DNA from: Candidatus Giovannonibacteria bacterium RIFCSPHIGHO2_02_FULL_44_11
Lineage (GTDB): Bacteria > Patescibacteriota > Minisyncoccia > UBA11713 > 2-01-FULL-45-33
Direction: 5' to 3'
NCBI GenBank assembly: GCA_001778595.1
Contig: MFHL01000004.1
Span: forward strand, 9,235 to 48,598
DNA length: 39,364 bases
A model generated the notes under the pieces. It had not been told where the DNA came from. It did not search any database and saw nothing but the letters and a program-made list of their open reading frames with translations. This document shows, one piece after another, positions 58 to 38,419 of the stretch (the stretch's first letter is position 1; each line of letters starts with the position of its first letter). Made by a program: the position numbers and the translations under genes.

Positions 58-62
58 GCTCC

Positions 63-85
63 ACTTGGAAACCGGGTTTCCAAGT
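63..85. repeat. Perfect 23-nt palindrome acttggaaacc-g-ggtttccaagt (REP-like hairpin), immediately 3' of the transposase stop codon
   Basis: Read directly: an 11-bp stem with a 1-nt centre. The same core recurs at 748-772. Confidence 0.9.
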
Positions 86-88
86 TGA

Positions 89-733: not shown

Positions 734-747
734 AGCACCTACCATAG

Positions 748-772
748 CACTTGGAAACCGGGTTTCCAAGTG
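748..772. repeat. Perfect 25-nt palindrome cacttggaaacc-g-ggtttccaagtg, second copy of the REP-like hairpin, just upstream of the transposase start
   Basis: Read directly. The core is identical to 63-85. Confidence 0.9.
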
Positions 773-819
773 GATAAGATGAACACGTAAATATATCGAA
801 AAACTCAAAAACAAGGCCA

Positions 820-3758: not shown

Positions 3759-3759
3759 T

Positions 3760-7479: not shown

Positions 7480-8981
7480 GAAAATATTCTATCCAGTTCT
7501 CTTTTATAAATCCTCCATAACTCCTCTTTGTCCCCAGCTCCCTTGCTCCATATGTCCCCATAATTAAAGCTGGAACCCGCGTCAAAAATCGCGGCGACAT
7601 AATTTTCCAATTTCCCTTCGTAATCTTCCGTTCTCAAATTTATGCTTAACACTTCCTTAATTTTTCGGGGCAGAGCGGTAAAATCAGTGTGCTTGAAGAC
7701 ATTGGGGAGCTTCATGGTGGTACCCAAATTTCCCAATTGGATCACGGGCTTACAAAAAAAGGCCGCTTCGCCGATGGTCGTACCGTTGGGGCTTACTATC
7801 AAATCGGCCTTTTTGAATATTTGAACAGTAGGTGTCCGATAATCAATGAATTTCACGTTAGGTGTGCGGGCAACTTTTTCCCAATAGGACATCGGACGCA
7901 ATCCAACCATTTCAGGATGTTCTTTTACAACCAGCGTATAATCGCCCGGAAGAGACATCGCCACCTGTCTGGCCGTTTCGATTTGGTTGCTGAAATTAGG
8001 AGCTATCACATCAATATTAGCTTCCGGCTGGAATTGCAGCGGAAAATAAACGCATTTCCCGACTTTCTCCAAAGGATAGAACTGAAACCGTGAAGCCGCC
8101 CATTTTTGGTATTTGTTCATGTAATGGTCACGAAGCAAAATTTTCGGGGGGCGGTAATCAACGGTTATTCCCGTGGCTTTAACGTAATCAACCGGACGCT
8201 TCCCCATCCACCACTTAAAACACTGATAATAAGGAGATAGTTCTTTTTTTAAGAAATGCCTGAAACCTAATTTCTTCGGCGTTTCGGCAGATACCTTTCC
8301 GTATTCCGCTCTGAATGTTTCAATAAATGAACGGGCTTTGTTTTGATTTGAGCTTTTCTCTTTTTGATTATTTAAATCGTCCAGTCTTTTAAAAAACGGC
8401 CCTTCGCTGTCCTGATAATTATAAGTAAACTGCCAAAATCCTTTTACCGCCCAGGAAGTTATCGCGAACATCGGAATTTTGTTTTTTTTTGCATATAAAT
8501 TGAATATGATGTGCGGCAAAGCGACAAAGTTGGGCGCAATGATAACATCGGGCTTAAACTCGCTGAAAAATACTTTCATGTATTTATAAACGGCTTTTAT
8601 GAAAAGTTCTATTCCTTCATCTGAAACGTTCTGGCGGAAAGAATAGTAATATTTTTCCCTGTACGATTTAACATGATTTCGGAGCGTGTAAGCTAAATGC
8701 CAGATGGAATCGATGCCCAGTTCTCCGCAAATCTCTTCAAAAGAAAAAACATCTCCCGCCAAATACGCCGCCGGGTCGGACATAATCGCATCATTTTCGA
8801 TTATCAGCTCATATTTTACTCCCGGCTGATTCCTTATCAATTCGTCGGTACTTTTTTTAAATGTCAGAGCGGCTAAAACGGCTTCTTCTTCCGATAATTT
8901 TTTCGCCAAAAAACGGCCTATGGTTTTTCCCCATCCGCGCTGTTGAAAAATCAAAACCCGTTTTCCTTTTAGATTATCCAT
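7476..8981 (-). CDS. Capsule-polysaccharide-biosynthesis family protein (KpsS/KpsC-like GT-B), putative glycosyl or ulosonic-acid transferase
   Basis: 501 aa. LVVKEHPEMVGLRP...PNVKFID...ADLIVSPNGTTIGEAAFFCKPVIQLG resembles the '..KxHP...(N)V.....li..a..V.t.nsT.G.EAl..gKPv...G' pattern of KpsS/KpsC-type proteins. A paralog-like protein lies at 28835-30271. Confidence 0.45.
   Translation of the reverse strand: MDNLKGKRVLIFQQRGWGKTIGRFLAKKLSEEEAVLAALTFKKSTDELIRNQPGVKYELIIENDAIMSDPAAYLAGDVFSFEEICGELGIDSIWHLAYTLRNHVKSYREKYYYSFRQNVSDEGIELFIKAVYKYMKVFFSEFKPDVIIAPNFVALPHIIFNLYAKKNKIPMFAITSWAVKGFWQFTYNYQDSEGPFFKRLDDLNNQKEKSSNQNKARSFIETFRAEYGKVSAETPKKLGFRHFLKKELSPYYQCFKWWMGKRPVDYVKATGITVDYRPPKILLRDHYMNKYQKWAASRFQFYPLEKVGKCVYFPLQFQPEANIDVIAPNFSNQIETARQVAMSLPGDYTLVVKEHPEMVGLRPMSYWEKVARTPNVKFIDYRTPTVQIFKKADLIVSPNGTTIGEAAFFCKPVIQLGNLGTTMKLPNVFKHTDFTALPRKIKEVLSINLRTEDYEGKLENYVAAIFDAGSSFNYGDIWSKGAGDKEELWRIYKRELDRIFS
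8146..8151. repeat. G6 homopolymer (C6 on the coding strand) in the KpsS-like gene
   Basis: Read directly. Confidence 0.9.
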
Positions 8982-9042: not shown

Positions 9043-9069
9043 AAAAAACCTGCCTTGCCGGCAGGCAGG
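9043..9069 (-). terminator. Rho-independent terminator formed by a CCTGCC..GGCAGG palindrome plus a U6 tail
   Basis: The minus strand reads cctgcctgccggcaaggcagg followed by tttttt. It sits 13 nt after the TAG stop (9082-9084) of the GNAT gene, in the only 100-nt gap of this operon run. Confidence 0.75.
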
Positions 9070-9081
9070 CCGCCCAAATTG

Positions 9082-9531
9082 CTATTGTGGACGGTTTAGT
9101 ATCATCTCCAGACAATCATGCCCTTCATAGTTTACCCGCACGGGCGGCGAATAACCCGCTTTAGCGAAGATCTTTAGCGAAGCAATATTATCGTGCTTGA
9201 TATGGGCAAAAATTGTTTGCACTCGGGGATAGTTTTGAAAAAATAGTATTGCTGTCTCTTGAAGTCCGCGGGTGGCATAACCATTACCACTATTGCGGCT
9301 GGAAACCGAAATACCCACTTCAGCGGATTTACACGACACATCATAGCGTACCTGACCAACCGGACACCCTTCATCAGAACGCAGAATAAAAAAAGAACAA
9401 TTAACATTAACTAAAGATGCCCTCAACCATTTAACGTGGTCTTCCCATTTCACGGGTTTCGCGTTCCATGAAGCGGATCGTACATCCGGCTCATTACGTA
9501 ACTCAAAAAGAAATAATTCATCAGAAAACAT
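9082..9531 (-). CDS. pseH: GNAT N-acetyltransferase, PseH-like
   Basis: The ATG at 9529-9531 gives MFSDELFLFELRNEPDVRSASWNAKPVKWEDHVKWL...; the track start at 9549 is a GTG. GNAT core: GISVSSRNSGNGYATRGL. It overlaps the pseI stop and lies next to the Pse synthase. Confidence 0.6.
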   Translation of the reverse strand: MFSDELFLFELRNEPDVRSASWNAKPVKWEDHVKWLRASLVNVNCSFFILRSDEGCPVGQVRYDVSCKSAEVGISVSSRNSGNGYATRGLQETAILFFQNYPRVQTIFAHIKHDNIASLKIFAKAGYSPPVRVNYEGHDCLEMILNRPQ

Positions 9532-10684
9532 TACTTTGTCTATCCTCACCTGATACCTCCATTTCTGAAGAAATCATGCCATAGATATGCTCTTTTTTCA
9601 ATGGCGTGCAGAATTCAATGTCTTGGGCCGCTGTCTTGTTCATCACTTGATCAAAATATTTGGTATGCAAGCCAAAACCCGGGCGTACGGAGCGGATATT
9701 TTCCGCGGTAAATTTCTCGCCTTTTTTGATGTCTTTGGCCGCAAAAAGTGAGCGCCTCCAGCGGAGATTATATTTTTCCAAGTCGTTGCGGGGACCGTAG
9801 TGCGGTTCGCCCAGTACTTTTTTGTAGCGCTCTTCGTCAAAAACGTATTGTTTTTTCCCATGGAGTATTAGAACGAGTTCTTTCAATTCATCGGGCTCAA
9901 GCGAAAAATCGGCATCCGGACCGCCCAGTTTTCTGTCCAAAATAATATGCTTTTCCACTATCGCCGCGCCGGCGCGCATGGCCATGGCAGGCACATCGAT
10001 TCCTCCGGAGTTGTCGGAAAACCCCGCAACCACTCCCCATTTCTGCGCGATGTCTTGAATAGTCGCCAGATTTGCGTGGTCCTCGTCCGCTTCGCTTTTG
10101 TAATCTGTAATACACTGCAAAATCGCGATATCTTTGGCACCGTTCTCACGGAGAGTTTTCAACGCAAGCTCAACGTCTTCAACACTCGCGTATCCTATGG
10201 ACATAATGACCGGTTTTCCGGTTTGCGCCACGCGCTTAAGCAAAATACAATCGTTAACTTCATAAGAAGCTATCTTATAAAATTGCACATTCATTTTTTC
10301 AAGGAAACCAACGGCAGTTGTGTCAAAAGGAGAAGAAAACAGCAAAATCCCAAGCTCGTCCGCCAATTTTTTCAGCTTCGGCTGCCAATCCCACGGAGTG
10401 AAAGCAGTCTGATAAAGCTGATAAAGCGTCTTGCCTTTCCATAACTCCGGATTGTCCGCTTCTACACCTACCCTAAACCACTCTTTATCGGAATTGAGCG
10501 TTATGGTATCCGCCGTGTAAGTCTGCAATTTTACCGCGTCCGCGCCGGCTTCTTTGGCAGCTCTTACCAAGGCTTCCGCCTCCTTATATTTTTGGTGATG
10601 GTTGCCTGAAATTTCTGCAACAACAAAAACAGGGTTTTCTCCGCCGATTTTGTGTCCATTGATGCTGAATTCCGGCAATATCAT
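9521..10684 (-). CDS. pseI: Pseudaminic acid synthase-type NeuB family enzyme (TIM barrel + SAF domain)
   Basis: 387 aa. FVVAEISGNHHQKYKEAEALVRAAKEAGADAVKLQTYTADTITL, YKIASYEVND, GKPVIMSIG, FSDNSGG and IVEKHI are present. C-terminal SAF-like FTAENIRSVRPGFGL. It carries a ~25-aa C-terminal tail beyond the usual end. Confidence 0.75.
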   Translation of the reverse strand: MILPEFSINGHKIGGENPVFVVAEISGNHHQKYKEAEALVRAAKEAGADAVKLQTYTADTITLNSDKEWFRVGVEADNPELWKGKTLYQLYQTAFTPWDWQPKLKKLADELGILLFSSPFDTTAVGFLEKMNVQFYKIASYEVNDCILLKRVAQTGKPVIMSIGYASVEDVELALKTLRENGAKDIAILQCITDYKSEADEDHANLATIQDIAQKWGVVAGFSDNSGGIDVPAMAMRAGAAIVEKHIILDRKLGGPDADFSLEPDELKELVLILHGKKQYVFDEERYKKVLGEPHYGPRNDLEKYNLRWRRSLFAAKDIKKGEKFTAENIRSVRPGFGLHTKYFDQVMNKTAAQDIEFCTPLKKEHIYGMISSEMEVSGEDRQSNVF

Positions 10685-16831: not shown

Positions 16832-18034
16832 TTAATCAAAAAGCGCGCCCCATTCAAGCATATGAGCAAACTGCGTGTCCTCTACCTTCGTATAGCATAT
16901 AGAAATATCCGAACGACGAAATTGAAAAATTTTTTCCTTATTCAACTTCAATGGTTGTCTTGCTTTCAAATCTTCCCCGGCGCGTTTTCCGATAACACTT
17001 TCATATTCTATTGCCGAAATCCCGACATCCGGCCTCAGCAAAATAATCTCGCTTTTTTTTATCTTTTCACCTTTTTTAATCCATTTATTCAGATAAACTC
17101 CTCTTCGCGCCCATCTCCGCTCATCAGATTCTTTTTGAATATATTTTCCTACAATACCGGACTGGGTTTTTTTAGTGCCATGAAGCGCCGGACGCTTTAT
17201 GCCGTCACCATACGCTTTTTCAAAATCACCGGAAAATTCTTCTTTCAGCTCCTTCAAAATATTTTCATGCTCAGCCGGCAGGCGCTTTTCAATACTTCTA
17301 ATGCGTTTGACCATTTCCGCAAATTCTTTTACGTCAAGCGAAAAAACATCATCTATGCTGCCACGCTCTTTTTTGGATGTTACATGTTTCTCTATAATGG
17401 AAGCTCCCAGCGCTACTGCGAGAAGTGGCACGAGAAATCCTTTCGAGCCGTTATCAGAATATCCCACAGAAACATTGAACTCTTTTTTAAGAGCGAGCAT
17501 TGCTGAGACATTGGCATCCTCAAAACTGGTCGGATAAACGGACACGCACTGAAGAAGTGTAATTTCCTTAGCGTTATTAGCGCGGAGAATTTTCATGGCC
17601 AGCCGCACTTCTTCCATTGTAGCCATTCCTGTTGAAACTATGAGCGGTTTTCCGAAAACAGCCACGTGTTCCAATAATTGATAATTTGTGATTTCACCCG
17701 AAGCAATTTTTATCGCGGGGATGCCTACGTTATTAAGAAAACTCGCTCCGTCATTATCGAATGGCGTGCATAAAAGGTCTATTCCCCGCTCATCGCAGAG
17801 CGCCTTTAATTTCGGAAACCATTCTCGCGGAGTCTCAGACTTTTTAAAATATTTATAAGTTTCCTCAAAAGCTTTCGTCAAAGGCGCAAGCAGCTTGTCG
17901 GCCGTAAAAAGCTGAAACTTAATAGCGTCGGCGCCGGCTTCCGCTGCCTGTTCAACATATTTTTTGGCAATTTCCCAATCATTCTCATGGGTGCTGGCCA
18001 CTTCAAAAATGATGTATGTGTGTGTTTTTTTCAT
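16832..18034 (-). CDS. Second NeuB-family nonulosonic acid synthase, with an internal insertion and a C-terminal extension
   Basis: 400 aa. IIFEVASTHENDWEIAKKYVEQAAEAGADAIKFQLFTADKL, IKIASGEITN, GKPLIVSTGMAT, YSDNG and IIEKHVT are present. An insertion of ~60 aa (RLPAEHENILKEL...ERRWARRG) precedes the SAF-like segment ILLRPDVGISA...GKRAGEDLKARQPL. Confidence 0.75.
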   Translation of the reverse strand: MKKTHTYIIFEVASTHENDWEIAKKYVEQAAEAGADAIKFQLFTADKLLAPLTKAFEETYKYFKKSETPREWFPKLKALCDERGIDLLCTPFDNDGASFLNNVGIPAIKIASGEITNYQLLEHVAVFGKPLIVSTGMATMEEVRLAMKILRANNAKEITLLQCVSVYPTSFEDANVSAMLALKKEFNVSVGYSDNGSKGFLVPLLAVALGASIIEKHVTSKKERGSIDDVFSLDVKEFAEMVKRIRSIEKRLPAEHENILKELKEEFSGDFEKAYGDGIKRPALHGTKKTQSGIVGKYIQKESDERRWARRGVYLNKWIKKGEKIKKSEIILLRPDVGISAIEYESVIGKRAGEDLKARQPLKLNKEKIFQFRRSDISICYTKVEDTQFAHMLEWGALFD

Positions 18035-19423: not shown

Positions 19424-20479
19424 ATGGGGAAAAAGGCTTTTCTGGTCGCCAATGACTTTGGCGAGTCGGCGTGTATAGAAAAAATCGACGCAGAGCTGAA
19501 GAATCAGGGATATGAAACAGTTAAAGTTTTAGGAAAAGGCAAAAATCTCACGCTAACGTATGAGATGGTAAAGCAAGCATCGGAAGCAGGCATATTGATT
19601 ACTGCAATTTCTGAATTCCACGAAACAGAAGTAAAGCTCGCGGTTGCTGTACGAAAGGCAAGACCAGATATGCCGATTGTTGTCTATGCGCCGGGGTGGT
19701 ACGCCTTCCGTATTAAAGGCGCGATTGCGCTTCGCGGTATCGCCGACCTGCTTTTGGTCAGTAATCAAAGAGAAGTCTCGGAAGCCGAGACGCTATACCC
19801 AAGAGCCAAAAAAGTTGCTGCGGTAGGAAATCTTTTGCATGAAGAGTTTTACCCTTCGTGTTCAGTAGCAGAAGCTCGGCAAAAAGCGGTGGTGGAAAAT
19901 GATCGGGCGCTGATCTTCATACCGGGCGATAAAGGCCCGCGGATCAATCTGCCGCTATTTGAATCCGTAGTTGCAGCTGCTCATCGTGAAAGAATCCAAA
20001 AACATAAACCTGTTGTTGCGATAGGCATCCATCCGGGAGATAATACTTACCTTCCCGACATGTATCAGAATCTTTCCGATAAAGACGTTCCCGTAAAGAT
20101 TTTCACCCGCGATATTTTACCGTCGGCAACACTAGTATTAGCCTGCGACCTGCTGGTCACAGCCCTGTCAACGCTTGCAGTAGCCGCGGCTTTCCAAAGA
20201 AAACCGGTAATTGGTTTTTACTGCGAAAATTTGCTGGCCGATACAGAAGCTGTGCAAGGAAGCAGGGTAATTAATTGGGAGCTGGAAAACAACGGAGCAG
20301 CCTTGGTGGTGCACAAAGAATCGGTTGATCTTTTAGAGAAAACTATGGCTGTGCTTTTGCAAACGGATAGTTTGCCCGCAAAACAAATGAAAATAAACCA
20401 AATGCAAAATTATCCGGAACCTCCCGTTCCTGGCTCAACGGCAAAAAAAGCGGTTGAACTTATCAAATTACTCGGCTAA
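19424..20479 (+). CDS. Hypothetical protein, possibly GT-B/Rossmann-like; visibly GC-richer than its neighbours
   Basis: 351 aa with its own promoter and terminator. No diagnostic motif recognised. The C-terminal half (LACDLLVTALSTLAVAAAFQRKPVIGF) vaguely resembles the donor-binding half of GT-B enzymes. Confidence 0.6.
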   Translation: MGKKAFLVANDFGESACIEKIDAELKNQGYETVKVLGKGKNLTLTYEMVKQASEAGILITAISEFHETEVKLAVAVRKARPDMPIVVYAPGWYAFRIKGAIALRGIADLLLVSNQREVSEAETLYPRAKKVAAVGNLLHEEFYPSCSVAEARQKAVVENDRALIFIPGDKGPRINLPLFESVVAAAHRERIQKHKPVVAIGIHPGDNTYLPDMYQNLSDKDVPVKIFTRDILPSATLVLACDLLVTALSTLAVAAAFQRKPVIGFYCENLLADTEAVQGSRVINWELENNGAALVVHKESVDLLEKTMAVLLQTDSLPAKQMKINQMQNYPEPPVPGSTAKKAVELIKLLG

Positions 20480-25579: not shown

Positions 25580-26712
25580 GTCAATTCGTTTACTTTTTGG
25601 ATTACAAAATCCTGATCTTTTTCAGTTAAGTCCGGGAAAATCGGTATGGAAATTTCAGATTCGTAGAACACTTCGGCTTTCGGACAAAGCCCCGCTTTGT
25701 AGCCAAGTTTTTGATAATAAGGGTGCAAATATACGGGAATGTAATGGACCTGAACTCCGATGCCCGCGTCGCGCAGTTTTTTAAAAATTTCCGCGCGCTT
25801 GCCCGCGTCCTTGAGGCGCAGAGGATACAAGTGCCAACTCGAAGATGCGCCTTCATATTCTTTCGGCAAAATTAAATTTTTATTTCCGGCGAACGCTTCG
25901 CCGTACCGCACAGCTATTTTTTTCCGCGCTTCAATGAATTTATCCAGTTTTTTTAACTGCGACACCCCTAAAGCGGCCTGAATATCCGTCATACGGTAAT
26001 TGTGGGCCAGCGCCTGCATCTCATAATACCAATCGCCTTCCGGTTTTTTTGTTAAATTATCTTTTGTGATGCCATGGCCGCGGTAAAGCAGTAGTTTTTC
26101 GTAAAAATCTTTCCGGCCGGTTAAAATTGCGCCTCCCTCGCCCGTCGCAATAGATTTTACGGGGTGAAAACTCAACATCGTCATATCGGCAATACTTCCC
26201 ACTTTTTTTACTTGCCTTGAGCCCGTCGAAAGGTATTCTGCCCCCAAAGCGTGTGCGGCGTCCTCTATTAATAACAATTTATGTTTTTCAGCCAAAGCTT
26301 TAAGTTCGTCCAGCCGCACGGGAAGACCAGAATAGTCAACCGGAACAATTGCTTTGGTTTTAGGCGTAATTTTTTTCTCAACTTCATTGGGATCAATATT
26401 CCCTGAATCCGCCTCAATGTCCGCGAAAACAACTTTTGCGCCCTGCCACAAAGCCGCGTTCGCTGTCGCCGCGAAAGTTAAAGAAGTTGTTATGACTTCA
26501 TCGTCCTTTTTTAAATCCGCGGCAAAATAAGCCGCCTCCAGAGCAGCCGTTCCGTTTGAGAAAACAACCGCATATTCCGCGCCTGTATATTTAGCCAGAG
26601 CCTCTTCAAATTCGCGTACTTCCGGACCCTGCGTCAGCCAGTCGGATTTAAAAACACCAAAAACAGCTTCTACATCATCATCACCAATTGATTGGTGGCT
26701 ATAAGGTATCAT
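25576..26712 (-). CDS. pseC: DegT/DnrJ/EryC1-type sugar aminotransferase, PseC-like
   Basis: 378 aa. IPYSHQSIGDDDV...SDWLTQGPEVREFEEALA...YAVVFSNGTAALE and SFHPVKSIATGEGG (PLP lysine). Confidence 0.75.
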   Translation of the reverse strand: MIPYSHQSIGDDDVEAVFGVFKSDWLTQGPEVREFEEALAKYTGAEYAVVFSNGTAALEAAYFAADLKKDDEVITTSLTFAATANAALWQGAKVVFADIEADSGNIDPNEVEKKITPKTKAIVPVDYSGLPVRLDELKALAEKHKLLLIEDAAHALGAEYLSTGSRQVKKVGSIADMTMLSFHPVKSIATGEGGAILTGRKDFYEKLLLYRGHGITKDNLTKKPEGDWYYEMQALAHNYRMTDIQAALGVSQLKKLDKFIEARKKIAVRYGEAFAGNKNLILPKEYEGASSSWHLYPLRLKDAGKRAEIFKKLRDAGIGVQVHYIPVYLHPYYQKLGYKAGLCPKAEVFYESEISIPIFPDLTEKDQDFVIQKVNELT

Positions 26713-30275: not shown

Positions 30276-32057
30276 TTATTCCCTTATATTATAAACCTTG
30301 AAAAAGTAAGATTCTTTATTTTTAAGAAGTTCTTTTGGTGAACCTGATTCGGCTATTTTGCCGTCTTTTAATGATAATATTTTATCCGAATTCATGAGCG
30401 TGGAAAGACGGTGTGCAATAACTATAACAGTTATTTTACCCTTAAGGTTTTCTATCACTTTCTGTATTTTTATTTCCGATTCATTATCCAAAGCGCTTGT
30501 AGCCTCGTCCAAAATAAGGAGCTGGGGTTTACGTGCCAAAACCCGCGCGATAATAAGCCGCTGGCGCTGCCCGCCGGAAAGCAAAACCCCTCTCTCTCCT
30601 ACAACTGTATCAAATTTTTCCGGAAGTTCCATTATAAAATCATAAATATTTGCCATTTTAACTGCCTCCGCAATTTTTTCATCCGTTATTGAGCTGTCGA
30701 AAAATCTGATGTTATTTGAAATAGTATCGTTCATCAAAAAAATATCCTGCGAAACATAGCCGATATTACGCCGCCATTCTTTCATGCTTATAGTTGAGAT
30801 ATCTTTTCCATCCAACAAAATACACCCACCCGAGGGATTCAAAAGACGCAGGATTAGATCCACGATAGTTGTTTTGCCGGCACCCGAGGGACCGATTATG
30901 CCTACAAATTCGCCTTTCCGAACCGCAAAATCCGCTCCTTTAAGGACTGACGCCCCCCCCTCATAAGCAAAATCTACGCCAGTAAACATAAGTTCATTAA
31001 TAAATATAAATAACGCAAAACCGGCATCTTCTTCTTTTTCTTTAATGGCATCTTCCTCGTGCTTCAGTAAAATTTCCACATATGGCGCCTTGGCGGTAAA
31101 ACCCAAAACATGTGTGTACACCTGCTCAATGTATGAAAAGATCTGCCTGATAAGATAAATGACGGTTGCTAAAGCCGCAATGTTGAAATCCGCAGACGTA
31201 TAATAAGAATAAGCGAACACTCCGCTAATAAATATGATGCCTAAAGGTTCAATAAGCATGCCAGTAAAAATGTTCAAAATATTCGAGCGAACATTGAGAG
31301 AGCGCAGGCCGCCGAAATAATTTGCCGCACCTTTGGCCACCTCTTCTCCCGCGCCGGAAGCCTGGATAGACTTAAGCCCGAGCATGCTTTGGTTTATCGA
31401 ATGAGCAACCTGCCTGTTTATAAGCTCTGCCTCGGATGAAAATGCACGTACGCGAGAAGTCAAAGGCCGCATTAACCCAAAAAAGACCAAAACACCGAAA
31501 ACAAAAGTCATAGCGGTTATGGGCAAAGAAATATTTACAGCCACTGCCGTATACACCAACAAATTAGAAAAAGACATTATAGCGTAGCCAATTTGTGCCA
31601 GCAGAGAGGTGGACTGGTCAACATTTACCATAAGAATTCTCTCCAGATGCCCCAGCTTTTGCTTCATAAGAAAGGGCCAGCGTGCGCGAAGAAAATTATA
31701 AAGAACCCTATTCCTGGTTTTTTCGCTATAGCGCGAGGTAATAGATGTATTAATGTATGAAAACAGGATAGAAACGGCTGCTTTTAAAATAAAAAGTAAA
31801 ATTATAAAAAGAAGCACAGACGCAATCGTAAGCTCAATTCCGGCAGCCGCGAACAATTTTTCGATATTTCTTGAAACAAAATCATCTCCCGCGTTCCCCG
31901 CTCCTATTGCCAAAGAGAATGCGGGGATTAGCGCATTCACGCCTATGCCGCCGAAAATGCCGCTCAAAACACCCAAAGCGGTCAAAACCACCATATGAAA
32001 TTTATATTCCCAAAAGCTTCTTTTAAATAAATTTAAAAAATAACTGATTTTGTTCAT
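30276..32057 (-). CDS. ABC exporter, fused TMD-NBD half transporter (MsbA/PglK-like)
   Basis: 593 aa. Six N-terminal hydrophobic helices, Walker A GPSGAGKTT, signature LSGGQRQR and Walker B LLILDEATSALD. Confidence 0.9.
   Translation of the reverse strand: MNKISYFLNLFKRSFWEYKFHMVVLTALGVLSGIFGGIGVNALIPAFSLAIGAGNAGDDFVSRNIEKLFAAAGIELTIASVLLFIILLFILKAAVSILFSYINTSITSRYSEKTRNRVLYNFLRARWPFLMKQKLGHLERILMVNVDQSTSLLAQIGYAIMSFSNLLVYTAVAVNISLPITAMTFVFGVLVFFGLMRPLTSRVRAFSSEAELINRQVAHSINQSMLGLKSIQASGAGEEVAKGAANYFGGLRSLNVRSNILNIFTGMLIEPLGIIFISGVFAYSYYTSADFNIAALATVIYLIRQIFSYIEQVYTHVLGFTAKAPYVEILLKHEEDAIKEKEEDAGFALFIFINELMFTGVDFAYEGGASVLKGADFAVRKGEFVGIIGPSGAGKTTIVDLILRLLNPSGGCILLDGKDISTISMKEWRRNIGYVSQDIFLMNDTISNNIRFFDSSITDEKIAEAVKMANIYDFIMELPEKFDTVVGERGVLLSGGQRQRLIIARVLARKPQLLILDEATSALDNESEIKIQKVIENLKGKITVIVIAHRLSTLMNSDKILSLKDGKIAESGSPKELLKNKESYFFKVYNIRE
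30953..30960. repeat. C8 homopolymer (G8 on the coding strand) inside the ABC exporter gene
   Basis: Read directly: cgcccccccc-t. It encodes E-G-G-A at the TMD/NBD junction (FAYEGGASVLKG). Confidence 0.95.
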
Positions 32058-33145
32058 AAAAATTTTAAAATATTTTCGGTTCTTTTATCCCAGGTGTATT
32101 TTTTTGAATCTTCATGTGCTTGTGCGGATATTTTTTGGGCCAAAGCGGGGTCGTCCAGAACTTTTTTGATACCCTCGGCAAGAGCTTTGGGGTTTCCGGC
32201 TTCCACAAGTACGGAATTGCCTTCGTTCAGGACTTCCCTTGTACTTGGGAGATCGGAAGAGATAATTGGCCGTTTTGAGGCCATATACTCAAACATTTTC
32301 ATCGGAGACATATAGTAGGAGTAATGGGTGGTTTTGGGGAAAGGCATAAGAAGGACGTCAAAGGCTTTTTGGTAGAGGGCTACAATATCCTGCGTCTGGT
32401 GGTCCCTGAAAAAAGCCCTTCCGCTAAGCCCCATATCATCGGCGACCTTTTGATATTCCACAACATGTCTTGGCTTGCCTCCCATAGCAACAAATATCAC
32501 ATTTTGCGGTAAAAACTTCAGCGCCTCCAAAATATCAAAAAAACCTTTATCCTCCCCCATAGTCTTATAACGCCCGCAGTAGCCTATTATTTTCATGTTT
32601 TGAGGCAGACCAAGCTTTGCGCGCGCTTCCTCTTTAGAGGCGCTTATATCAAAAATTTTGAGGTCCACTCCGTCCGGAGCAACAAACATCTGCTTTTTAT
32701 CAAGTCCGTATTTTTCCAGATACATATCGGTGAGATGCTTTGTTACGCAAATATAATAATCCGCAAAAAAAGAAATTATTCTTTCGGCCAAACCGTTCAA
32801 AAAATCGTTTTCTATTATTCTGTGCACTTCGTAGGCGAATTTGGCTTTATTACCTGAAATTTTTCCGAAAATCCCCAAAAACAAAAGCAGTTTCGGTTCA
32901 CGGCAATAAATAATATCTACATTGTTTTTTTTTGCGAATTTCAAATATTTCGGCGCGAGCAGATAGCTTTTTTCTGTTTTGAAATTTAAAATTTGGAAAT
33001 TCACGCCGTCCGATTTTATATTTTCTCCTCCAAGCCAAAAATTATTTCCCATTTTTACGCCAAAAGCTTTGGACATGGCCAAAATCTGCATGCGGTTGGC
33101 AAGTCCGGACGGATAAGATATTGAAGTGGCGTAAAGCAATCTCAT
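32054..33145 (-). CDS. GT4 glycosyltransferase
   Basis: 363 aa. IIGYCGRYKTMGEDKG, VAMGG, DVLLMPFP...SPMKMFEYMASKRPIISSD (EX7E-type region). Confidence 0.85.
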   Translation of the reverse strand: MRLLYATSISYPSGLANRMQILAMSKAFGVKMGNNFWLGGENIKSDGVNFQILNFKTEKSYLLAPKYLKFAKKNNVDIIYCREPKLLLFLGIFGKISGNKAKFAYEVHRIIENDFLNGLAERIISFFADYYICVTKHLTDMYLEKYGLDKKQMFVAPDGVDLKIFDISASKEEARAKLGLPQNMKIIGYCGRYKTMGEDKGFFDILEALKFLPQNVIFVAMGGKPRHVVEYQKVADDMGLSGRAFFRDHQTQDIVALYQKAFDVLLMPFPKTTHYSYYMSPMKMFEYMASKRPIISSDLPSTREVLNEGNSVLVEAGNPKALAEGIKKVLDDPALAQKISAQAHEDSKKYTWDKRTENILKFL

Positions 33146-33149
33146 AAGA

Positions 33150-34331
33150 TTAAAAAATGAATCCTATAATTTTTGTTGCTCTCTTCTCCCAAGTATAACT
33201 CTGAACATCCTCATATGCTCTCGCCGCCAATTGTCGGCCTAAAGCAGAGTCATTCAATATTTTTTCAATTCCGGCCGCCAAAGCCTTGGGGTTCCCTGCT
33301 TCAACCAAAATGGCATTATTTTCGTTTAAAACTTCTCTGACACTGGGAAGATTTGACGCGACAATGGGGCGCTTGGAGGCCATATACTCAAACATTTTCA
33401 TCGGAGACATATAGTAGGAATAATGAGTGGTTTTGGGGAAAGGCATAAGCAGGACGTCAAAGGCTTTTTGGTAGAGGGCGAGCTTTGCGCGCGGAACTCT
33501 TTCTATAAATAGATTATTCCCTTCCGTGTAAGTTTTATTTCCTCCGACTGAAACCAAAAAAACATTCTGCCTGCTTTTCAAAATCTCTGCAACAGCCTCT
33601 GTCATATCTTCCAGTCCCTTTCCCATGCCCATAGTGTGCGTGGCGCCCGTATAACCGAGCAAAACCGCATTTTGCGGCAGACCAAGCTTTGCGCGCGCAT
33701 CTTCTTTTGAAATATTGATATCAAATATTTTCAAATCTACCCCGTCGCGAGCAACTAAGATATCAGATTCTTTAAAGCCCTGCCTGCCGGCAGGCAGGCG
33801 GCACTTTTTATAAAGCTCCGCCAAAGTGTTCGTCACGGCAATAACTTTTACGGCTTTTTTTATGAAATATTTATGCAGCCAAATTTTGCTCTGTGGCCAG
33901 CGGTGCGATTCAAAGACCGTTTTGTAGCCGCGGCGCGAAAAAAGAAATACAATTTCCGGATTACGAGAATAAATAACGGAGTCCGCGGAGGATTTTACGG
34001 TTAAAAGCTTTATAAGAAAAAAAATACTCTGAAGAATAAAACCTATTTTTCTTAAAAACAGCGGCGTCATGGCAATAAAATCAGGAGTTAAAATTTGCAT
34101 AACCTTAAAATTTCTTTCAATCCCGTAATATTCAAACAAATCTGCTTTTATTTCATTGCGTCTGGTAGGAATTATCAACTCTATTTCAATTTTATCAGCG
34201 TTATTTCCGCGTTCGTAATCAGCGTATGATCTGTGGCTTTGCGTAGCAAAGCTCTCACACATTTTGGCAACCTGATATCCGTGAGCTTTTTCCGTAGGCA
34301 TGCGGAAGTTGGCGATATAAATCAATTTCAT
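33150..34331 (-). CDS. GT4 glycosyltransferase, tandem paralog of 32054-33145
   Basis: 393 aa. It shares ARAKLGLPQN and ALYQKAFDVLLMPFPKTTHYSYYMSPMKMFEYMASKRPI with its neighbour. It carries the palindrome-encoded insert RLPAGRQG. Confidence 0.85.
   Translation of the reverse strand: MKLIYIANFRMPTEKAHGYQVAKMCESFATQSHRSYADYERGNNADKIEIELIIPTRRNEIKADLFEYYGIERNFKVMQILTPDFIAMTPLFLRKIGFILQSIFFLIKLLTVKSSADSVIYSRNPEIVFLFSRRGYKTVFESHRWPQSKIWLHKYFIKKAVKVIAVTNTLAELYKKCRLPAGRQGFKESDILVARDGVDLKIFDINISKEDARAKLGLPQNAVLLGYTGATHTMGMGKGLEDMTEAVAEILKSRQNVFLVSVGGNKTYTEGNNLFIERVPRAKLALYQKAFDVLLMPFPKTTHYSYYMSPMKMFEYMASKRPIVASNLPSVREVLNENNAILVEAGNPKALAAGIEKILNDSALGRQLAARAYEDVQSYTWEKRATKIIGFIF
33779..33798. repeat. 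Perfect 20-nt palindrome cctgcctgccggcaggcagg inside the GT4 CDS
   Basis: Read directly. It is translated as L-P-A-G-R-Q, and the paralog lacks these residues at the aligned position. Confidence 0.95.
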
Positions 34332-34332
34332 A

Positions 34333-34983
34333 TTATTTTTCCAAAATAAACACGTATCCGAGAGGATATTTTTCCTTAAGCTTCGGTCTCAGTTTAATCA
34401 GCGCAAGGTCAAAATAATAATAAAACGGCAGCGCGATTAATTTTATGAAGCGCGGAAAAGGAAAAGAAGCGTAAATATTATAACTTACAGCGCACGGACC
34501 CAGACCGACCTCTATGATTTGTATGTTTTTAAAACCAGTTTCGCCAAATATATTGCGGAGCGCTTCTTTTGTATATCTGAAATAATCCCGCGGATCCGGA
34601 TGGTAACTCATCATAAAAGGCACAAAACCCAAAACTTGCCGGCCGGGCTTCAGAACCCTTTTTATCTCGCCCGCCAAAAACCTATAGTTATAAATATGTT
34701 CAAAAAGATTAAAAACCAAAACATGGTCAATGGACCCGTCGGAATAAGGCAGCGGATCTTTCTCAAGGTCTATAGTTTTACCGATTTCATGCAGACTTTT
34801 AAAGTCAATATTGATGATTTCAGCACCTTCTTCTTTTTTTAAAAACTCAAAATAACTGGGATTCACTCCCCCGCCGATATCCAAAACTTTTCCGCGGACG
34901 GAATAGTTGGCGAGCTCCAGATTCATTAAGGTTCGCAGGAGACTTTTTTTGCGCCAAATACCTTTTGCTATTTTTAAAATCAT
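34333..34983 (-). CDS. Class I SAM-dependent methyltransferase (type 11-like)
   Basis: 216 aa. VLDIGGGVNP, DHVLVFNLFEHI and LKPGR. Confidence 0.75.
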   Translation of the reverse strand: MILKIAKGIWRKKSLLRTLMNLELANYSVRGKVLDIGGGVNPSYFEFLKKEEGAEIINIDFKSLHEIGKTIDLEKDPLPYSDGSIDHVLVFNLFEHIYNYRFLAGEIKRVLKPGRQVLGFVPFMMSYHPDPRDYFRYTKEALRNIFGETGFKNIQIIEVGLGPCAVSYNIYASFPFPRFIKLIALPFYYYFDLALIKLRPKLKEKYPLGYVFILEK

Positions 34984-37271
34984 GTTTTTTTGAATAAATC
35001 TATAAATTCTTTAACGCCCTTTGCAACATCAAAGTTTTGGGCGTAATCAACGCAATCTCTCTCCGCTTTCTCATATAACGCTTTATCGGACAAAAGTATA
35101 TTTATTTTATCCCGGAAGCATTTAACATCTTCCGGTTTGCATAAAAATTGAACAAGGCTTTCGGGAATCAATTCCCTGATGCCGCCGATGTCGGAAGCGA
35201 CAAACGGCGTCCCCGAAGCCATTGCTTCCAATATAACACGCGGAGAGCCCTCTTCGCGCGAAGGCATGAAAAATATATCCGCGGCATGAAAAAATTTAGG
35301 GATTTCGCTATTCGACACTTTGCCAAGAACTTTAATATTAGGAACTCCGCATTTTTCCAGATTTTCTTTTTCAGGTCCGTCGCCCACAACCAAAAACAAA
35401 ACGTCATCACCGAATCCTTTCGCGATTTCAGGAATTAAATCCGCGCCTTTGCGTTTGGAAAGATGATGGACGAAAAGCGCAATGTGTTTGCCTGAATTTG
35501 GCGAAGGAGGAAGTTTTGCAAGACCTTGCGCAGCACGACGGTGCGAGCAGAGCAATTCGCCAACAGGCGAATATGCGTGTCCTTGCAAAACTTCGCTCCG
35601 AGACAAATTCGCTACTGGCGCGAATCTTTTCACATCCACCCAATTTGATACAACGCGGTATTCTTTTACGCCGTAACGCTCCGTATATTCTTTCGCCAAA
35701 GACTCCGGCCCCGTTACTAAAATAGTGTGCCGTAATACAAACCTAAGCAGTTTCTCTTCAAACCAACTCCTTTTGAACAGCCACGGCATTCCGCGGTTCC
35801 AATAAAAAACTTTTCCTCCCTGCCTCGCCGGCAGGCAGGCCACAAGCCAAGCGGAGAGCGCTCCATAATAAGAATAATGCACGTAGAAATTTTTATAGCC
35901 TGAAAGGCGGAGCCTTAAACAGATAAACAGCATTTCCAAAAATCTTAACGGCGGAAATTTAAATTTTTGGACATAAGCTGATGCCCCCAAATGTCGAACA
36001 TTCGATGTTCGACATTTCTCGACTATAACAAACAAATCCAACTCATTCCCTGCCGCCAATCTTTTAATCATCAGATAATTATAAAAAAAGTGGGTATCCG
36101 TACCCTCTTCATAAAGAGGCAAAACATAGCAAACTTTTGATTTGGTGAGATTTTTTAGAAGCCCGGCATAAAGTTCCAAATATTTTTCTTTTGACATGGG
36201 GCTTGGAAAAGAATTTTCCGCGCTTTTTTTAAATTTTGCCAATTGTTCCGGATTTGCAATAAATTGCGATATCCGCAGTGCCAAAGCGCGGCTATCCCCG
36301 ACAGGTACAATTGCCGCGTTAACGCCGTCTTTTATGATTTCGTGCCCGCGCACAACATCAGTCACAATAACCGGAAGACCGGACGCAAGAGCTTCAATGG
36401 GTGCGAGTGGCCAACCTTCATAAAACGAGGTCAAAAGAAACAGGTCGGCAGTTTTATAATACGAAATCAGAGTTTCAAAATCTACCGCAGACTCAAAAAT
36501 AACTGATTCTTTCAATCCAAGGCTGTCCGCCAAAATCCGCAAGCGCTCTTTTTCCGGCCCGTCACCGACGATTAAAAGCATTGGTCTCGCTGTACCGTCA
36601 AATTTTTCAAGGACACGCATATCCCGCTGCTGCGGGATTGCTCTGCTCGCGCCGTCGCGCTGCGCAAGGTCTTGAAAAACTTGAGCTACAGCTCCGACCG
36701 CCATATCAATATTTTTTTCTTTCGTAATACGCGAGGCCATTAAAATAATAAATTTACCGGGATATTTTTTGTGTAAATCAATTTTTACGGCGGTTTTTCT
36801 GATCTTTTCAATATCAACAAATACCGGAAGAACCGCAACGCGGCCGGCGAGCGATTTATCATAATCCGCTATGGATTCTTTGATTTTCTCCGAAACCACG
36901 CGGATGCCATCCGCGCGCGGAAGCAAAAACTTAATCAGAAAAACGCGAATCTTGTTCAACACCGAGTGTTTGATAAAATGCGGGCTGAAAATATCGGTAT
37001 GAATCTGCATTTGCCACGGGACGCCGTATATTTTAGAAAATACCCATGCGAGCGCGGCGTGCTCCGGGCTTTGGGCCGTAATTACATCGGGTTTTTTCCG
37101 CCGCATGATTTTCAGCCCGCGGAAAAATCCGTAAATATAATTAAAAATATTTCCCCGGCAAATCAAAATATCCAGCCCGCCGAAAGCCCGGCGGTACTCT
37201 TCCATTCTTTTAGCAACCGCGGACTCCGGGTCCAAAACTCCCGGATCCCCGCTTATCATCAGAACCATCAT
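34980..37271 (-). CDS. Fused double GT4 glycosyltransferase (two complete GT4 modules)
   Basis: 763 aa. Module 1: LLIVGDGPEKERL...LLTSFYEGWPLAPIEALASGLPVIVTD. Module 2: LFLVVGDGPEKENL...FFMPSREEGSPRVILEAMASGTPFVASD. It contains three repeat insertions (35513-35591, 35819-35839, 36602-36680). Confidence 0.85.
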   Translation of the reverse strand: MMVLMISGDPGVLDPESAVAKRMEEYRRAFGGLDILICRGNIFNYIYGFFRGLKIMRRKKPDVITAQSPEHAALAWVFSKIYGVPWQMQIHTDIFSPHFIKHSVLNKIRVFLIKFLLPRADGIRVVSEKIKESIADYDKSLAGRVAVLPVFVDIEKIRKTAVKIDLHKKYPGKFIILMASRITKEKNIDMAVGAVAQVFQDLAQRDGASRAIPQQRDMRVLEKFDGTARPMLLIVGDGPEKERLRILADSLGLKESVIFESAVDFETLISYYKTADLFLLTSFYEGWPLAPIEALASGLPVIVTDVVRGHEIIKDGVNAAIVPVGDSRALALRISQFIANPEQLAKFKKSAENSFPSPMSKEKYLELYAGLLKNLTKSKVCYVLPLYEEGTDTHFFYNYLMIKRLAAGNELDLFVIVEKCRTSNVRHLGASAYVQKFKFPPLRFLEMLFICLRLRLSGYKNFYVHYSYYGALSAWLVACLPARQGGKVFYWNRGMPWLFKRSWFEEKLLRFVLRHTILVTGPESLAKEYTERYGVKEYRVVSNWVDVKRFAPVANLSRSEVLQGHAYSPVGELLCSHRRAAQGLAKLPPSPNSGKHIALFVHHLSKRKGADLIPEIAKGFGDDVLFLVVGDGPEKENLEKCGVPNIKVLGKVSNSEIPKFFHAADIFFMPSREEGSPRVILEAMASGTPFVASDIGGIRELIPESLVQFLCKPEDVKCFRDKINILLSDKALYEKAERDCVDYAQNFDVAKGVKEFIDLFKKT
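35513..35591 (+). repeat. ~79-bp multi-hairpin palindromic element, copy A (forward), in frame within the CDS
   Basis: gttttgcaag...cttgcaaaac terminal 10-bp inverted repeat, plus internal hairpins gcac-gacg-gtgc and attcgcc-aaca-ggcgaat. 67/79 identical to the reverse complement of 36602-36680. Confidence 0.9.
35819..35839. repeat. Imperfect palindrome cctgcctcgccggcaggcagg inside the CDS
   Basis: Read directly; translated as C-L-P-A-R-Q. Confidence 0.9.
36602..36680 (-). repeat. ~79-bp multi-hairpin palindromic element, copy B (inverted), in frame within the same CDS
   Basis: The reverse complement reads gtttttcaagaccttgcgcagcgcgacggcgcgagcagagcaatcccgcagcagcgggatatgcgtgtccttgaaaaat. It has the same architecture as copy A, with compensatory changes. 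Confidence 0.9.
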
Positions 37272-38419
37272 TGTTTTAAAATTTTTATAGTCTCATTTAT
37301 CATTCTCTCTTTTGAAAATTCTTCCGCTTTTTTCTTGGCATTTTCGGACATTGCAGTGGCAAAACTTTTATCCGACAAAATCTTGTCTATTTTTTCCGCA
37401 AAAGCAAACTTATCGTTAAACTCAACTAAAAATCCTGTTATTCCGTCTATTACAAGCTCCGGGTTCCCTCCCACATCTGTCGTGACGACCGGTACGCCCA
37501 AAGCCATTGCTTCCAATATCTGATGCGACAAACCCTCGTATGACGTATTAAGTGCGAATACATCAGCCGCCCTTAAGTAGTCCAGCACCGCATCGCGCGA
37601 AAGCGCTCCCGTAAATATAACTTTTTCAACAAGCCATGCCCTGTTCCGTACTGATTCCAGGCGGTTTCTTTCCGGTCCTTCGCCGATAATAATAAGTTTT
37701 AAACCCGCACGCTCGTCCAGCGCGTCGCCGAATTTTTTTGAAAGCTCCGGCATTATTTCAATAAGCGCGTCAAATCCTTTCCACGGCACCAACCGCCCGG
37801 CCGATACAATTATTTTTCCTTCCAACCCAATCTGTTTCTTTGCGTCTTCTTTGGAAATTGAGGCTGATGTTCCCTGCGGTGCGTCGAATGCGTTGTAAAT
37901 AACAATGATTTTTTGAGGGTCCACTCCCCATTTTAAAACAACCTTCTTCAGATAATTGCTCGGCACTATGACTTTTTCGGCATTGTTCGCGACCCGGCGC
38001 TCCAATTTTCTGAAAAGCTCAACTTTAAAACCGTATTTTCCTGCCTGCGCAGGCAGGTTTTCTAAAAAATCATCCAAAATTTCTTTGACCCCGAAGCGCC
38101 CGACTCCCTGTTCCCACGCGTAATCCCCGACAATCTTCAGCAAAAACTTTTTTTTCCACAATTTCCCCGCAATCAATGCCGAAATGCCGGAATTTAAAAC
38201 ATCCTGCGCATATATAATATCCGCATTCCGCGCCGCCAAAAGAACTTTAATAAAATAAACCGGCTGGCGCAGAACCCAGGGGTATTTTTTTAATTTTCCG
38301 AACGTAACAACCGTAACCTCTATCCCCTGCCCGGGCAGTTCTTCTTTGAGTAATTTGCTGTATGTCGCGGGCCCGCCGATATCGGGCGGGTAAATGCCCG
38401 TGGCTATTAATATTTTCAT
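37268..38419 (-). CDS. GT4 glycosyltransferase
   Basis: 383 aa. MKILIATGIYPPDIGGPATY, LIIIGEGPERNRL and ALNTSYEGLSHQILEAMALGVPVVTTD. Confidence 0.85.
   Translation of the reverse strand: MKILIATGIYPPDIGGPATYSKLLKEELPGQGIEVTVVTFGKLKKYPWVLRQPVYFIKVLLAARNADIIYAQDVLNSGISALIAGKLWKKKFLLKIVGDYAWEQGVGRFGVKEILDDFLENLPAQAGKYGFKVELFRKLERRVANNAEKVIVPSNYLKKVVLKWGVDPQKIIVIYNAFDAPQGTSASISKEDAKKQIGLEGKIIVSAGRLVPWKGFDALIEIMPELSKKFGDALDERAGLKLIIIGEGPERNRLESVRNRAWLVEKVIFTGALSRDAVLDYLRAADVFALNTSYEGLSHQILEAMALGVPVVTTDVGGNPELVIDGITGFLVEFNDKFAFAEKIDKILSDKSFATAMSENAKKKAEEFSKERMINETIKILKQ
38040..38057. repeat. Perfect 18-nt palindrome cctgcctgcgcaggcagg inside the GT4 CDS
   Basis: Read directly; translated as L-P-A-Q-A-G. 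It is followed by TTTT on the plus (antisense) strand. Confidence 0.95.

Follow-up and report, generated by a model that had tools for sequence, protein, structure and literature searches.

Why should three glycosyltransferase (GT) genes of a single bacterial gene cluster each carry, in frame, a nearly identical GC-rich palindrome? The question is raised by Candidatus Giovannonibacteria bacterium RIFCSPHIGHO2_02_FULL_44_11, from which we analyzed a stretch of 39,364 nucleotides (contig MFHL01000004.1, positions 9,235 to 48,598; the window from here on). The palindrome, which we call PAL, is GC-rich, measures 18 to 21 bp, and reads CCTGCCT(N)GCCGGCAGGCAGG in the window, where the GC content is 37 to 48 %. 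As set out below, the copies in the GT genes are recent insertions of a widely dispersed repeat, which we tentatively read as a selfish hairpin element resembling repetitive extragenic palindromic (REP) sequences.

PAL copies in the glycosyltransferase genes

The original prediction had placed four palindromes in the window, three of them in frame within GT genes and translated as RLPAGRQ(G), CLPARQG, and NLPAQAG, and had taken them to be non-random. A pattern scan and the open reading frames (ORFs) agree on every copy: CCTGCC-N(0-12)-GGCAGG has five matches at four sites in the 39 kb of the window, against 0.01 in dinucleotide-preserving shuffles. Outside the palindrome, no sequence common to the four window copies was found.

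The three host genes (GT1, GT2, and GT3; coordinates in Table 1) have their homologs in Patescibacteria, near Giovannonibacteria. At the PAL copy, GT1 is seven amino acids longer than 16 of the 17 aligned homologs, which read ...K-x-x-GF... and comprise the tandem paralog and 15 others. The paralog had already led to the suggestion that the 33779 copy was inserted, a view that the wider alignment bears out and that extends to GT2 and GT3. The single homolog sharing the insert belongs to a 93 %-identical strain variant from an independent assembly (locus L160). The net gain in GT1 is 21 nt, i.e., the 20-mer and one adjacent base. The target already held GCCGG, with the insertion at the C^CGG position, and an AlphaFold model (mean pLDDT of 89.5) places the inserted residues in the loop joining helix 168-176 and strand 191-193.

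For GT3, an empty site is available. The 94 %-identical ortholog in L158 reads GATAA^AAAATAC where the window reads GAAAA-(18-mer)-AAAATAC, an exact 18-nt insertion in an A-run without target duplication. The insert is missing from five orthologs (L158 and four others), and the same 18-mer recurs in the unrelated locus L241. In GT2, the many short-form homologs read AWLV-GGK-VFYWNRG and the window AWLV-ACLPARQ-GGK, a difference of seven amino acids and 21 nt that corresponds exactly to the 21-mer. The three intragenic copies come in three lengths (18-mer, 21-mer, and 20-mer plus one base), all of which preserve the frame and add six or seven amino acids. Judged by these alignments, all three are insertions and not ancestral coding sequence. 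Conservation of LPAGRQ-type peptides in distant homologs had been named as an observation that would speak against insertion; these peptides are absent from the homologs, and this objection therefore falls away.

Copies also turn over among close relatives. L158 carries two of them elsewhere in the same gene cluster, one translated as ACLPVGR in the GT1 ortholog, the GT3 ortholog of L164 contains ITLPAGSQA at yet another site, and L156 is without any copy in 21 kb.

The PAL family: spread, placement, and ends

The genome scan covered one genome per species, and the total numbers and the taxonomic range of PAL given here are lower bounds. The 20-mer was found in at least 120 genome stretches, in loci with a GC content of 31 to 72 %. 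Among the listed matches, record titles name Patescibacteria, Bacteroidota, Omnitrophota, Planctomycetota, Thermodesulfovibrio, Chloroflexi, and proteobacteria, and three isolates carry it (Winogradskyella echinorum KCTC 22026, Flagellimonas yonaguniensis, and Longitalea luteola, all Bacteroidota). A viral collection contains the 20-mer in 35 stretches, while three composition-matched control palindromes gave 0, 0, and 0. PAL loci hold 97 additional diverged copies, against 0 in shuffles, and the usual variants are one-sided substitutions or a single extra base between T7 and G8. Neither the PAL sequence, its halves, nor the peptide LPAGRQ occurs in any relevant paper of the literature searched.

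Placement is mostly intergenic, with 33 % of copies in an open frame of at least 150 amino acids, compared to 84 % of positions drawn at random from these loci. No stop codon occurs in any of the three frames of the palindrome, and in low-GC loci the LPAGRQ frame is the one used in 7 of 11 unambiguous host genes. PAL is also found in the genes for RfbB (two copies, one nested in the other, together 42 nt), FtsK, ScpB, and ribosomal protein S6. For annotation, LPAGRQ-type peptides and segments like them in proteins of Patescibacteria are to be treated as repeat-derived and not as functional motifs. A putative pair of copies at homologous positions in L052 and L056 was ruled out, the two proteins being unrelated.

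PAL ends are sharp, and the flanks have no conserved motif except a T bias at +1. PAL lies inside PAL three times (L023, L051, and L026), always at 9|10 (11|12 on the other strand), the first step of the central CCGG; this self-insertion point is the CCGG loop of the hairpin, and in L023 and L051 the CG is neither lost nor doubled. Flanking direct repeats that share 6 nt or more in a row accompany 37 of 137 PAL sites versus 13 of 136 controls. We considered target-site duplication for this modest excess and rejected it, as the excess can be ascribed to tandem-repeat contexts (in which a few intergenic sites have abutting direct repeats of 7 to 14 bp) and the empty sites are clean.

Some copies sit in tRNA genes, where deleting the 20-mer gives back the exact canonical tRNA sequence: in the variable loop of a viral tRNA-Met, and in D-loops in L018, L046, L104, and L152. 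In the viral contig L145 (2239-2330), the 20-mer enters the tRNA-Met variable loop at AGG|TC, which produces a long extra arm, and Rfam recognizes a full tRNA (50 bits). A truncated version of this insertion is found in L122. The idea that the tRNA-adjacent copies are insertions in working tRNAs in general was abandoned, since ARAGORN detects no tRNA at L018, L046, or L104. L046 and L018 are partial 5' tRNA copies, and the cases that stand are L145 and L152, the latter a tRNA-Lys with a group I intron. In the D-loops, insertion took place at either of two positions that are separated by 2 nt.

Most PAL copies are singlets. A PAL-81 nt-PAL composite occurs in three places (L242 4731-4850, L242 8476-8595, and L254 11614-11733), and other pairs are present in L037 and L127. 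The composite is a repeat of approximately 200 nt within a larger imperfect inverted repeat, an arrangement that resembles REPINs.

PAL-B, a second palindrome with its own transposase

Close to its start, the window has a gene for a RAYT-like (REP-associated tyrosine transposase-like) Y1 transposase of the IS200 type, ORF 89-733, which matches PF01797 at 28.2 bits (gathering score, 23) but reaches only 20 bits with the curated RAYT model NF047646 REP_Tyr_transpos (NCBIfam; cut-off, 80). These scores make it a distant relative of the curated RAYT equivalog, not the equivalog itself. The HUH motif NHFHLIL and the tyrosine motif SAYVNLN can be read by eye in the translation, and the protein has more than 3000 relatives, mostly in Patescibacteria, that are named "transposase". 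On both sides of the gene lies a second palindrome of 25 nt, CACTTGG-AAACC-N-GGTTT-CCAAGTG (that is, CACTTGG-N11-CCAAGTG), which we call PAL-B.

The exact 23-mer of PAL-B was found in 103 metagenome stretches. The transposase is present in 13 of these 103 loci, mostly bracketed directly by PAL-B copies about 688 nt apart (L198, L210, and others), and more divergent Y1 transposases have other cognate palindromes. PAL-B occupies 97 sites with unrelated flanks, and 60 % of its copies are in an open frame of at least 150 amino acids; no GTAG tag was found at PAL-B. From the bracketing, the dispersal, and the intragenic copies, it follows that PAL-B functions in this lineage as a REP-RAYT-like system that freely invades genes, with PAL-B as the cognate repeat of the Y1 transposase of the window.

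Contigs with PAL-B are enriched for PAL (671 kb of them hold 33 PAL-like copies), and PAL-B is absent from 1.2 Mb of PAL loci from other phyla. A possible association of PAL with RAYT genes had been raised in the original prediction; it survives in the sense that a RAYT-like Y1 gene is present in the window, flanked by PAL-B, but not for PAL itself, which lies beside no such gene in approximately 155 loci and is without a tag.

PAL-B also links both families to a single protein loop. Where GT2 of the window holds PAL, eight orthologs contain PAL-B variants instead, translated as TW-xxxx-QV. Six variants are perfect palindromes with arms of 11 to 12 bp and a single central base, with the 5-nt cores CGTCC, CGGCT, TTGTC, AAACC, CGGTG, and CGACC. 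The outer arms are invariant, synonymous positions included, while each of the five inner pairs has changed in both arms; the covariation score was reached by 0 of 500 shuffles, and in slid registers pairing collapses to approximately 30 to 38 %. We conclude that something maintains the dyad symmetry. As this symmetry runs to the center, where it is of no use to a folded hairpin, arm-to-arm copying or repeated replacement would explain it better than selection on an RNA hairpin. Other GT2 homologs have long unrelated insertions at the same place, and the loop is an insertion hot spot.

The cassette of PAL-B, Y1 transposase, and PAL-B lies between two direct copies of a 93-nt repeat that are identical at 92 of 93 positions (window, 1-57 and 823-915; in full in L270, 2900-2992 and 3758-3850). 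The repeat is the 3' end of the adjacent Bac_transf sugar-transferase gene, and the gene therefore stays intact. All 10 contexts retrieved for the identical transposase have this arrangement. Although RAYTs are mostly reported as single-copy genes, several Giovannonibacteria contigs (86,393, 149,223, and 38,592 bp) carry two or three different Y1 transposase paralogs.

Table 1. Coordinates of the palindrome copies, their host genes, and related features. Positions refer to the window, except for the cassettes, which are given in the coordinates of their own loci.
Feature	Position	Strand	Context	Evidence or remark
PAL copy, perfect 20-mer CCTGCCTGCCGGCAGGCAGG	33779..33798		In GT1, aa 178-184, translated (R)LPAGRQ(G)	Pattern scan
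PAL copy, 21-mer with one extra C, CCTGCCT-C-GCCGGCAGGCAGG	35819..35839		In GT2, aa 479-485, translated (A)CLPARQ(G)	
PAL copy, 18-mer (20-mer minus central CG)	38040..38057		In GT3, aa 121-127, translated NLPAQA(G)	
PAL copy, 21-mer with one extra T	9049..9069		Intergenic, between ORFs 7476-8981 and 9082-9549	
Putative PAL remnant, decayed, GCGCCTGCCGGCTGAGC	17270..17290		In NeuB/PseI-like gene 16832-18034(-), translated RLPAEH	10-nt match to the PAL core
GT1, GT4 glycosyltransferase	33150..34331	-	Host of 33779 copy	Pfam Glycos_transf_1 / Glyco_trans_1_4
GT2, two-domain GT4 glycosyltransferase	34980..37271	-	Host of 35819 copy	Pfam
GT3, GT4 glycosyltransferase	37268..38419	-	Host of 38040 copy	Pfam
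RAYT-like Y1 (HUH) IS200-type transposase gene, 214 aa	89..733	-		Pfam PF01797
PAL-B copy	60..88 (core 63-85, ACTTGGAAACC-G-GGTTTCCAAGT)		Directly downstream of transposase gene	
PAL-B copy, perfect 25-mer CACTTGGAAACC-N-GGTTTCCAAGTG	748..772		15 nt upstream of transposase start codon	
GIY-YIG/tRNA cassette, L152	478-560 and 820-860		Palindrome: PAL	
GIY-YIG/tRNA cassette, L046	2107-2480		Palindrome: PAL	
GIY-YIG/tRNA cassette, L093	~2750-3050		Palindrome: PAL-like	
GIY-YIG/tRNA cassette, L189	~400-800		Palindrome: TCCGCCAGCTGGCGGA	

A proposed selfish hairpin element, probably moved in trans

The reading that we favor, with a probability of about 0.55, takes PAL for a selfish hairpin element that resembles REPs, is tolerated in protein loops if its length keeps the frame, and probably moves as single-stranded DNA. 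As with REPs and IS200/IS605 elements, an HUH tyrosine transposase provided in trans would cut the folded hairpin on single-stranded DNA and insert it anew. Copies land at many kinds of site without target-site duplication and would survive where the harm is small, namely, in intergenic DNA (the majority), in the loops of tRNA genes, and in surface loops of proteins. Within genes, only copies with a net length that is a multiple of three would persist, and the polysaccharide GT genes of this patescibacterial lineage have been invaded repeatedly. The intragenic copies would be passengers rather than functional modules, and the terminator-like hairpin at 9049 would be incidental.

Among the explanations considered, this is the best supported, as it is favored by the exact, duplication-free insertion, by insertion points at the loops of foldable DNA (tRNA genes and PAL itself), and by the precedent of PAL-B in the same genomes. 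The insertions themselves, their exact boundaries and lack of target duplication, the membership in a family, the turnover among relatives, and the co-occurrence with PAL-B and its transposase are direct observations; the enzyme and the single-strand mechanism are the parts that we infer, and they are probable.

Several observations weigh against this reading. PAL flanks a Y1 transposase in 0 of approximately 155 loci, with 8 to 15 kb visible per locus. A tblastn search of the PAL loci with the Y1 transposase of the window returned homologs in just two of them, L099 and L007, each at a distance of over 1.8 kb from PAL and flanked by other hairpins. A Pfam census of the 150 ORFs within 2 kb of PAL revealed no recurrent transposase family, and the genes bracketed by PAL pairs are ordinary, with no transposase among them. 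Of 150 PAL sites, 6 have a GTAG and 6 a CGTC tag no more than 6 nt away, about the level of chance (estimated at 2 to 5 %). No consistent target sequence was found before the PAL insertion points, although IS200/IS605-type HUH transposases use one. PAL is symmetric right through its center, a symmetry that hairpin recognition alone does not need, and 6 of 14 small ORFs for GIY-YIG nucleases have a PAL-like copy at a distance of 100 nt or less, where we estimate that fewer than 1 would be expected. Last, the 20-mer is identical across phyla, including high-GC lineages and viral contigs, while REP sequences normally co-evolve with the RAYT of their lineage. Since this identity is not predicted by REP-RAYT co-evolution, either a broad-host mobilizing activity or an enzyme-independent route is called for.

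Possible insertion at breaks

An enzyme-independent route of this kind is conceivable but unlikely. PAL, and palindromes like TCCGCCAGCTGGCGGA, would enter where site-specific nucleases (homing GIY-YIG nucleases or restriction enzymes) have nicked the DNA or broken both strands. The joining step, which we hold to be just as doubtful, would be the ligation of a self-complementary 20-bp duplex or a templated repair step, with no dedicated transposase. The association with GIY-YIG genes is what brings this route to mind. Besides the proximity to 6 of the 14 small GIY-YIG ORFs, a cassette recurs at four loci (Table 1) in which a partial 5' tRNA copy with a palindrome in its D-loop is followed by a small GIY-YIG ORF and then by an intact tRNA without the palindrome. 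Insertion at only two D-loop positions would also suit a nuclease, as would the C^CGG position shared by the nested PAL copies and the GT1 site. Exact insertions of 18 or 20 nt without target duplication (GT3 and the tRNA cases) and the lack of a transposase adjoining PAL are equally compatible with it, and the identity across phyla is simpler to understand without a co-evolving enzyme.

On the other hand, the source of a constant 20-mer duplex is not known, and the CCGG sites show neither micro-deletions at the junctions nor duplications from fill-in (the CG is intact in L023 and L051). There is no GIY-YIG gene in the window or in its relatives, and most PAL sites have no nuclease gene nearby. 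To our knowledge, many Patescibacteria are not known to possess end-joining repair, which also counts against breaks as the point of entry. A narrower version, based on restriction sites (GCCGGC or C^CGG at the center of PAL and ACCTGC at its ends), was dropped, as these are suggestive coincidences only.

A broader form, to which we give similarly little credence, takes PAL to be a pan-bacterial, enzyme-unlinked micro-element of constant 20-bp sequence, carried by phages from phylum to phylum, that would enter at nicks, breaks, or single-stranded loops and whose palindromes would be kept perfect by a symmetry-restoring process despite changing cores, as for PAL-B in the GT2 loop. Sites in tRNA genes that mobile GIY-YIG endonucleases cleave would be among its hot spots, and it would have no dedicated co-evolving transposase, a part that we find no easier to credit. 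If true, such an element would be mobile DNA outside the categories of REP/RAYT, MITE (a miniature transposable element with inverted repeats), and insertion sequence.

In L071 (3861-4150), a GIY-YIG domain lies in frame within an apparent type I restriction specificity-subunit gene, and a PAL copy translated as PACRQAG precedes it by about 40 nt.

Functional hairpins and termination as possible alternatives

It is quite unlikely that the palindromes are hairpins under selection for a function of their own, whether in termination (sense or antisense), in mRNA 3'-end stabilization, in ribosome pausing between GT subdomains, or in binding a dimeric protein. PAL hairpins are stable, at -12 to -21 kcal/mol, and some copies are placed as a function would require. 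The 9049 copy lies 13 nt 3' of the stop codon of a GNAT acetyltransferase gene, 9082-9549(-), has TTTTTT next to it on the minus strand, and scores as terminator-like on that strand at the level of pattern. The 33779 and 38040 copies score likewise on the plus (antisense) strand, in line with the original prediction that T-runs beside intragenic copies could end antisense transcription. This cannot be generalized to the family, as T-runs adjoin only 8 of 51 intergenic copies, compared to 23 % of control positions, and PAL is not depleted from divergent intergenic regions. We rejected termination as a trait of the PAL family on the T-run counts; it would at most be a side effect of single copies.

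The arm covariation and the invariant outer arms of PAL-B in the eight GT2 orthologs could also be cited for a selected hairpin, but the symmetry reaches a center of 0 to 1 nt. Furthermore, orthologs and paralogs manage without the inserts, their positions vary among close relatives, and copies decay by one-sided substitutions. No Rfam family matches anywhere in the window.

Formation in place, chance, and artifact as unlikely alternatives

Formation of the palindromes in place by replication template-switching (quasi-palindrome correction), with their recurrence as convergence, is very unlikely for PAL. Arm-to-arm copying would produce symmetry up to the center and the compensated changes of the GT2-loop arms, the GT1 target held GCCGG beforehand, and the window has nine perfect GC-rich hairpins in all, against 0.8 in shuffles. 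However, the empty site of GT3 (AAAAAAA) is unlike the 18 nt inserted there, the boundaries are sharp, and the same 20-mer has unrelated flanks at more than 150 loci, where three equally GC-rich controls are found in none. The GT3 empty site and the control scans largely refute a local origin, which remains as a force that may keep the arms symmetric after insertion. Several of the other perfect GC-rich hairpins of the window, with stems of 7 to 8 bp, also lie in coding regions (1631-1645, 19775-19791, 25887-25903, and 36899-36915).

Ancestral coding sequence, chance, or an assembly or adapter artifact is scarcely credible: GC-rich palindromes can recur among very many terminator hairpins and most records are metagenome assemblies, but the shuffles and control palindromes, the insertions demonstrated against orthologs, the isolate genomes, the same copy in the independent assembly L160, the frame-keeping lengths, the diverged variants, and the non-random genomic context all contradict it.

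Relation to known mobile repeats

REPs and REPINs with their RAYTs are GTAG- and CGTC-tagged palindromic repeats (PMC3733652, PMC3116915), and intragenic REPs are on record (PMC3733652). PAL resembles them in being a short GC-rich hairpin repeat with many copies, mostly extragenic and sometimes read through in genes, and no target duplication is expected in either case; its occurrence as singlets, doublets, and clusters may be a further common trait. It differs in having no GTAG/CGTC tag, no flanking RAYT in approximately 155 loci, and a perfect palindrome with a center of 0 to 1 nt, and in not being lineage-specific. PAL-B has the REP/RAYT layout, with the gene flanked on both sides and the repeat dispersed elsewhere, as seen in the window, and departs from REPs in being intragenic about as often as not.

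The Rickettsia palindromic elements (RPEs) are also in-frame palindromic repeats in the genes of a small AT-rich genome, at tolerated positions and with no known dedicated transposase. RPEs measure approximately 100 to 150 bp and are confined to Rickettsia, whereas PAL has 18 to 21 bp, many phyla, nothing conserved beyond the palindrome, and a patescibacterial host in the present case, so the likeness is behavioral only. IS200/IS605 elements and their miniature derivatives (PATEs) move as single-stranded DNA hairpins by means of a Y1 HUH transposase, as we suppose for PAL, and likewise leave no target duplication. They have two different subterminal hairpins and insert beside a fixed target of 4 to 5 nt; PAL has just one hairpin, a symmetric one, and no consistent target. 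The target-site duplication typical of a MITE is not seen at PAL, as judged by the empty and filled sites of GT3 and the exact restoration of tRNA sequences.

Outside bacteria, the GC clusters and "byp" elements of yeast mitochondria are small GC-rich palindromic mobile DNAs of AT-rich genomes, located in spacers and occasionally in genes. Yeast GC clusters merge, nest, and can transfer horizontally by a mechanism that is unresolved, with intron-encoded endonucleases proposed as helpers (PMC4478555). Unlike PAL, which is without target duplication, they are 30 to 50 bp long, flanked by AG or ACT direct repeats, and organellar (PMC4478555). In mitochondrial genes of Nematomorpha, perfect inverted repeats of up to 284 bp are translated within coding genes and reportedly do not form a dispersed family of identical units, while PAL is a constant 20-mer (PMC6649704).

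Read-through palindromic repeats are already known from REPs and the Rickettsia elements, and PAL differs in four respects. The unit is minimal (18 to 21 bp), and insertion can be resolved to the single base, with three length adjustments that keep three genes in frame. The same 20-mer spans phyla and viral contigs. The window contains its own positive control, as PAL-B, with its own Y1 transposase, enters the same protein loop in orthologs and shows compensated symmetry from center to edge. Finally, the surface-polysaccharide genes of Patescibacteria appear to be a preferred site for such elements, and invasion of this type may contribute to the many unexplained protein insertions in these small-genome bacteria.

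Other observations

A decayed half-site had been proposed at approximately 17270-17290, within the extra stretch of a NeuB homolog. The location holds, as the site is the start of a stretch of about 40 amino acids that is extra with respect to solved PseI/NeuB structures. It is at most a putative PAL remnant, the match being limited to the 10-mer GCCTGCCGGC, for which we estimate about 0.08 chance matches in the window.

GT1 and GT2 show further extra segments. Amino acids 31-47 of GT1 (34191-34241) form an extra segment, QSHRSYADYERGNNADK, that is common to a few close homologs and missing from most, and at a different site the homologs P0002 and P0003 have other long insertions in common (...SERVRASEPPxRGLSASETESAS...). 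A larger intragenic repeat, QV(F/L)QDLAQxDGASRAI...NMRVLAKF, is found in the window (36582-36683, GT2 amino acids 197-230), in both domains of the L158 GT2, and in L165 (693-2000). It follows the GDGPE motif in various GT paralogs and orthologs, is missing from others, contains the hairpin ATCCCGC-TGCT-GCGGGAT (36621-36638), and looks like a second, RPE-like class of in-frame insertion. In L160 (1269-2447, compared to 32054-34331 of the window; 93 to 100 % identical strain), GT1 is chimeric, with a 3' part that corresponds to the tandem paralog, and the paralog itself is missing. Therefore, recombination between the tandem GT genes deleted one of them.

The viral contig L154 has 16 PAL-like copies in 4 kb (1568-3800 and 3911-4142), several of them within ORFs. 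Its end is a perfect tandem array of 11 units of 21 nt, translated as MACLPVG repeats, that may be real or an effect of the assembly end.

Two further perfect palindromes occur in PAL loci of unrelated genomes, TCCGCCAGCTGGCGGA in five loci (L012, L018, L020, L040, and L049) and CCCGATAGCTATCGGG in three (L062, L073, and L083). Both are often only tens of bases from PAL, giving mosaics of different palindromes in intergenic DNA.

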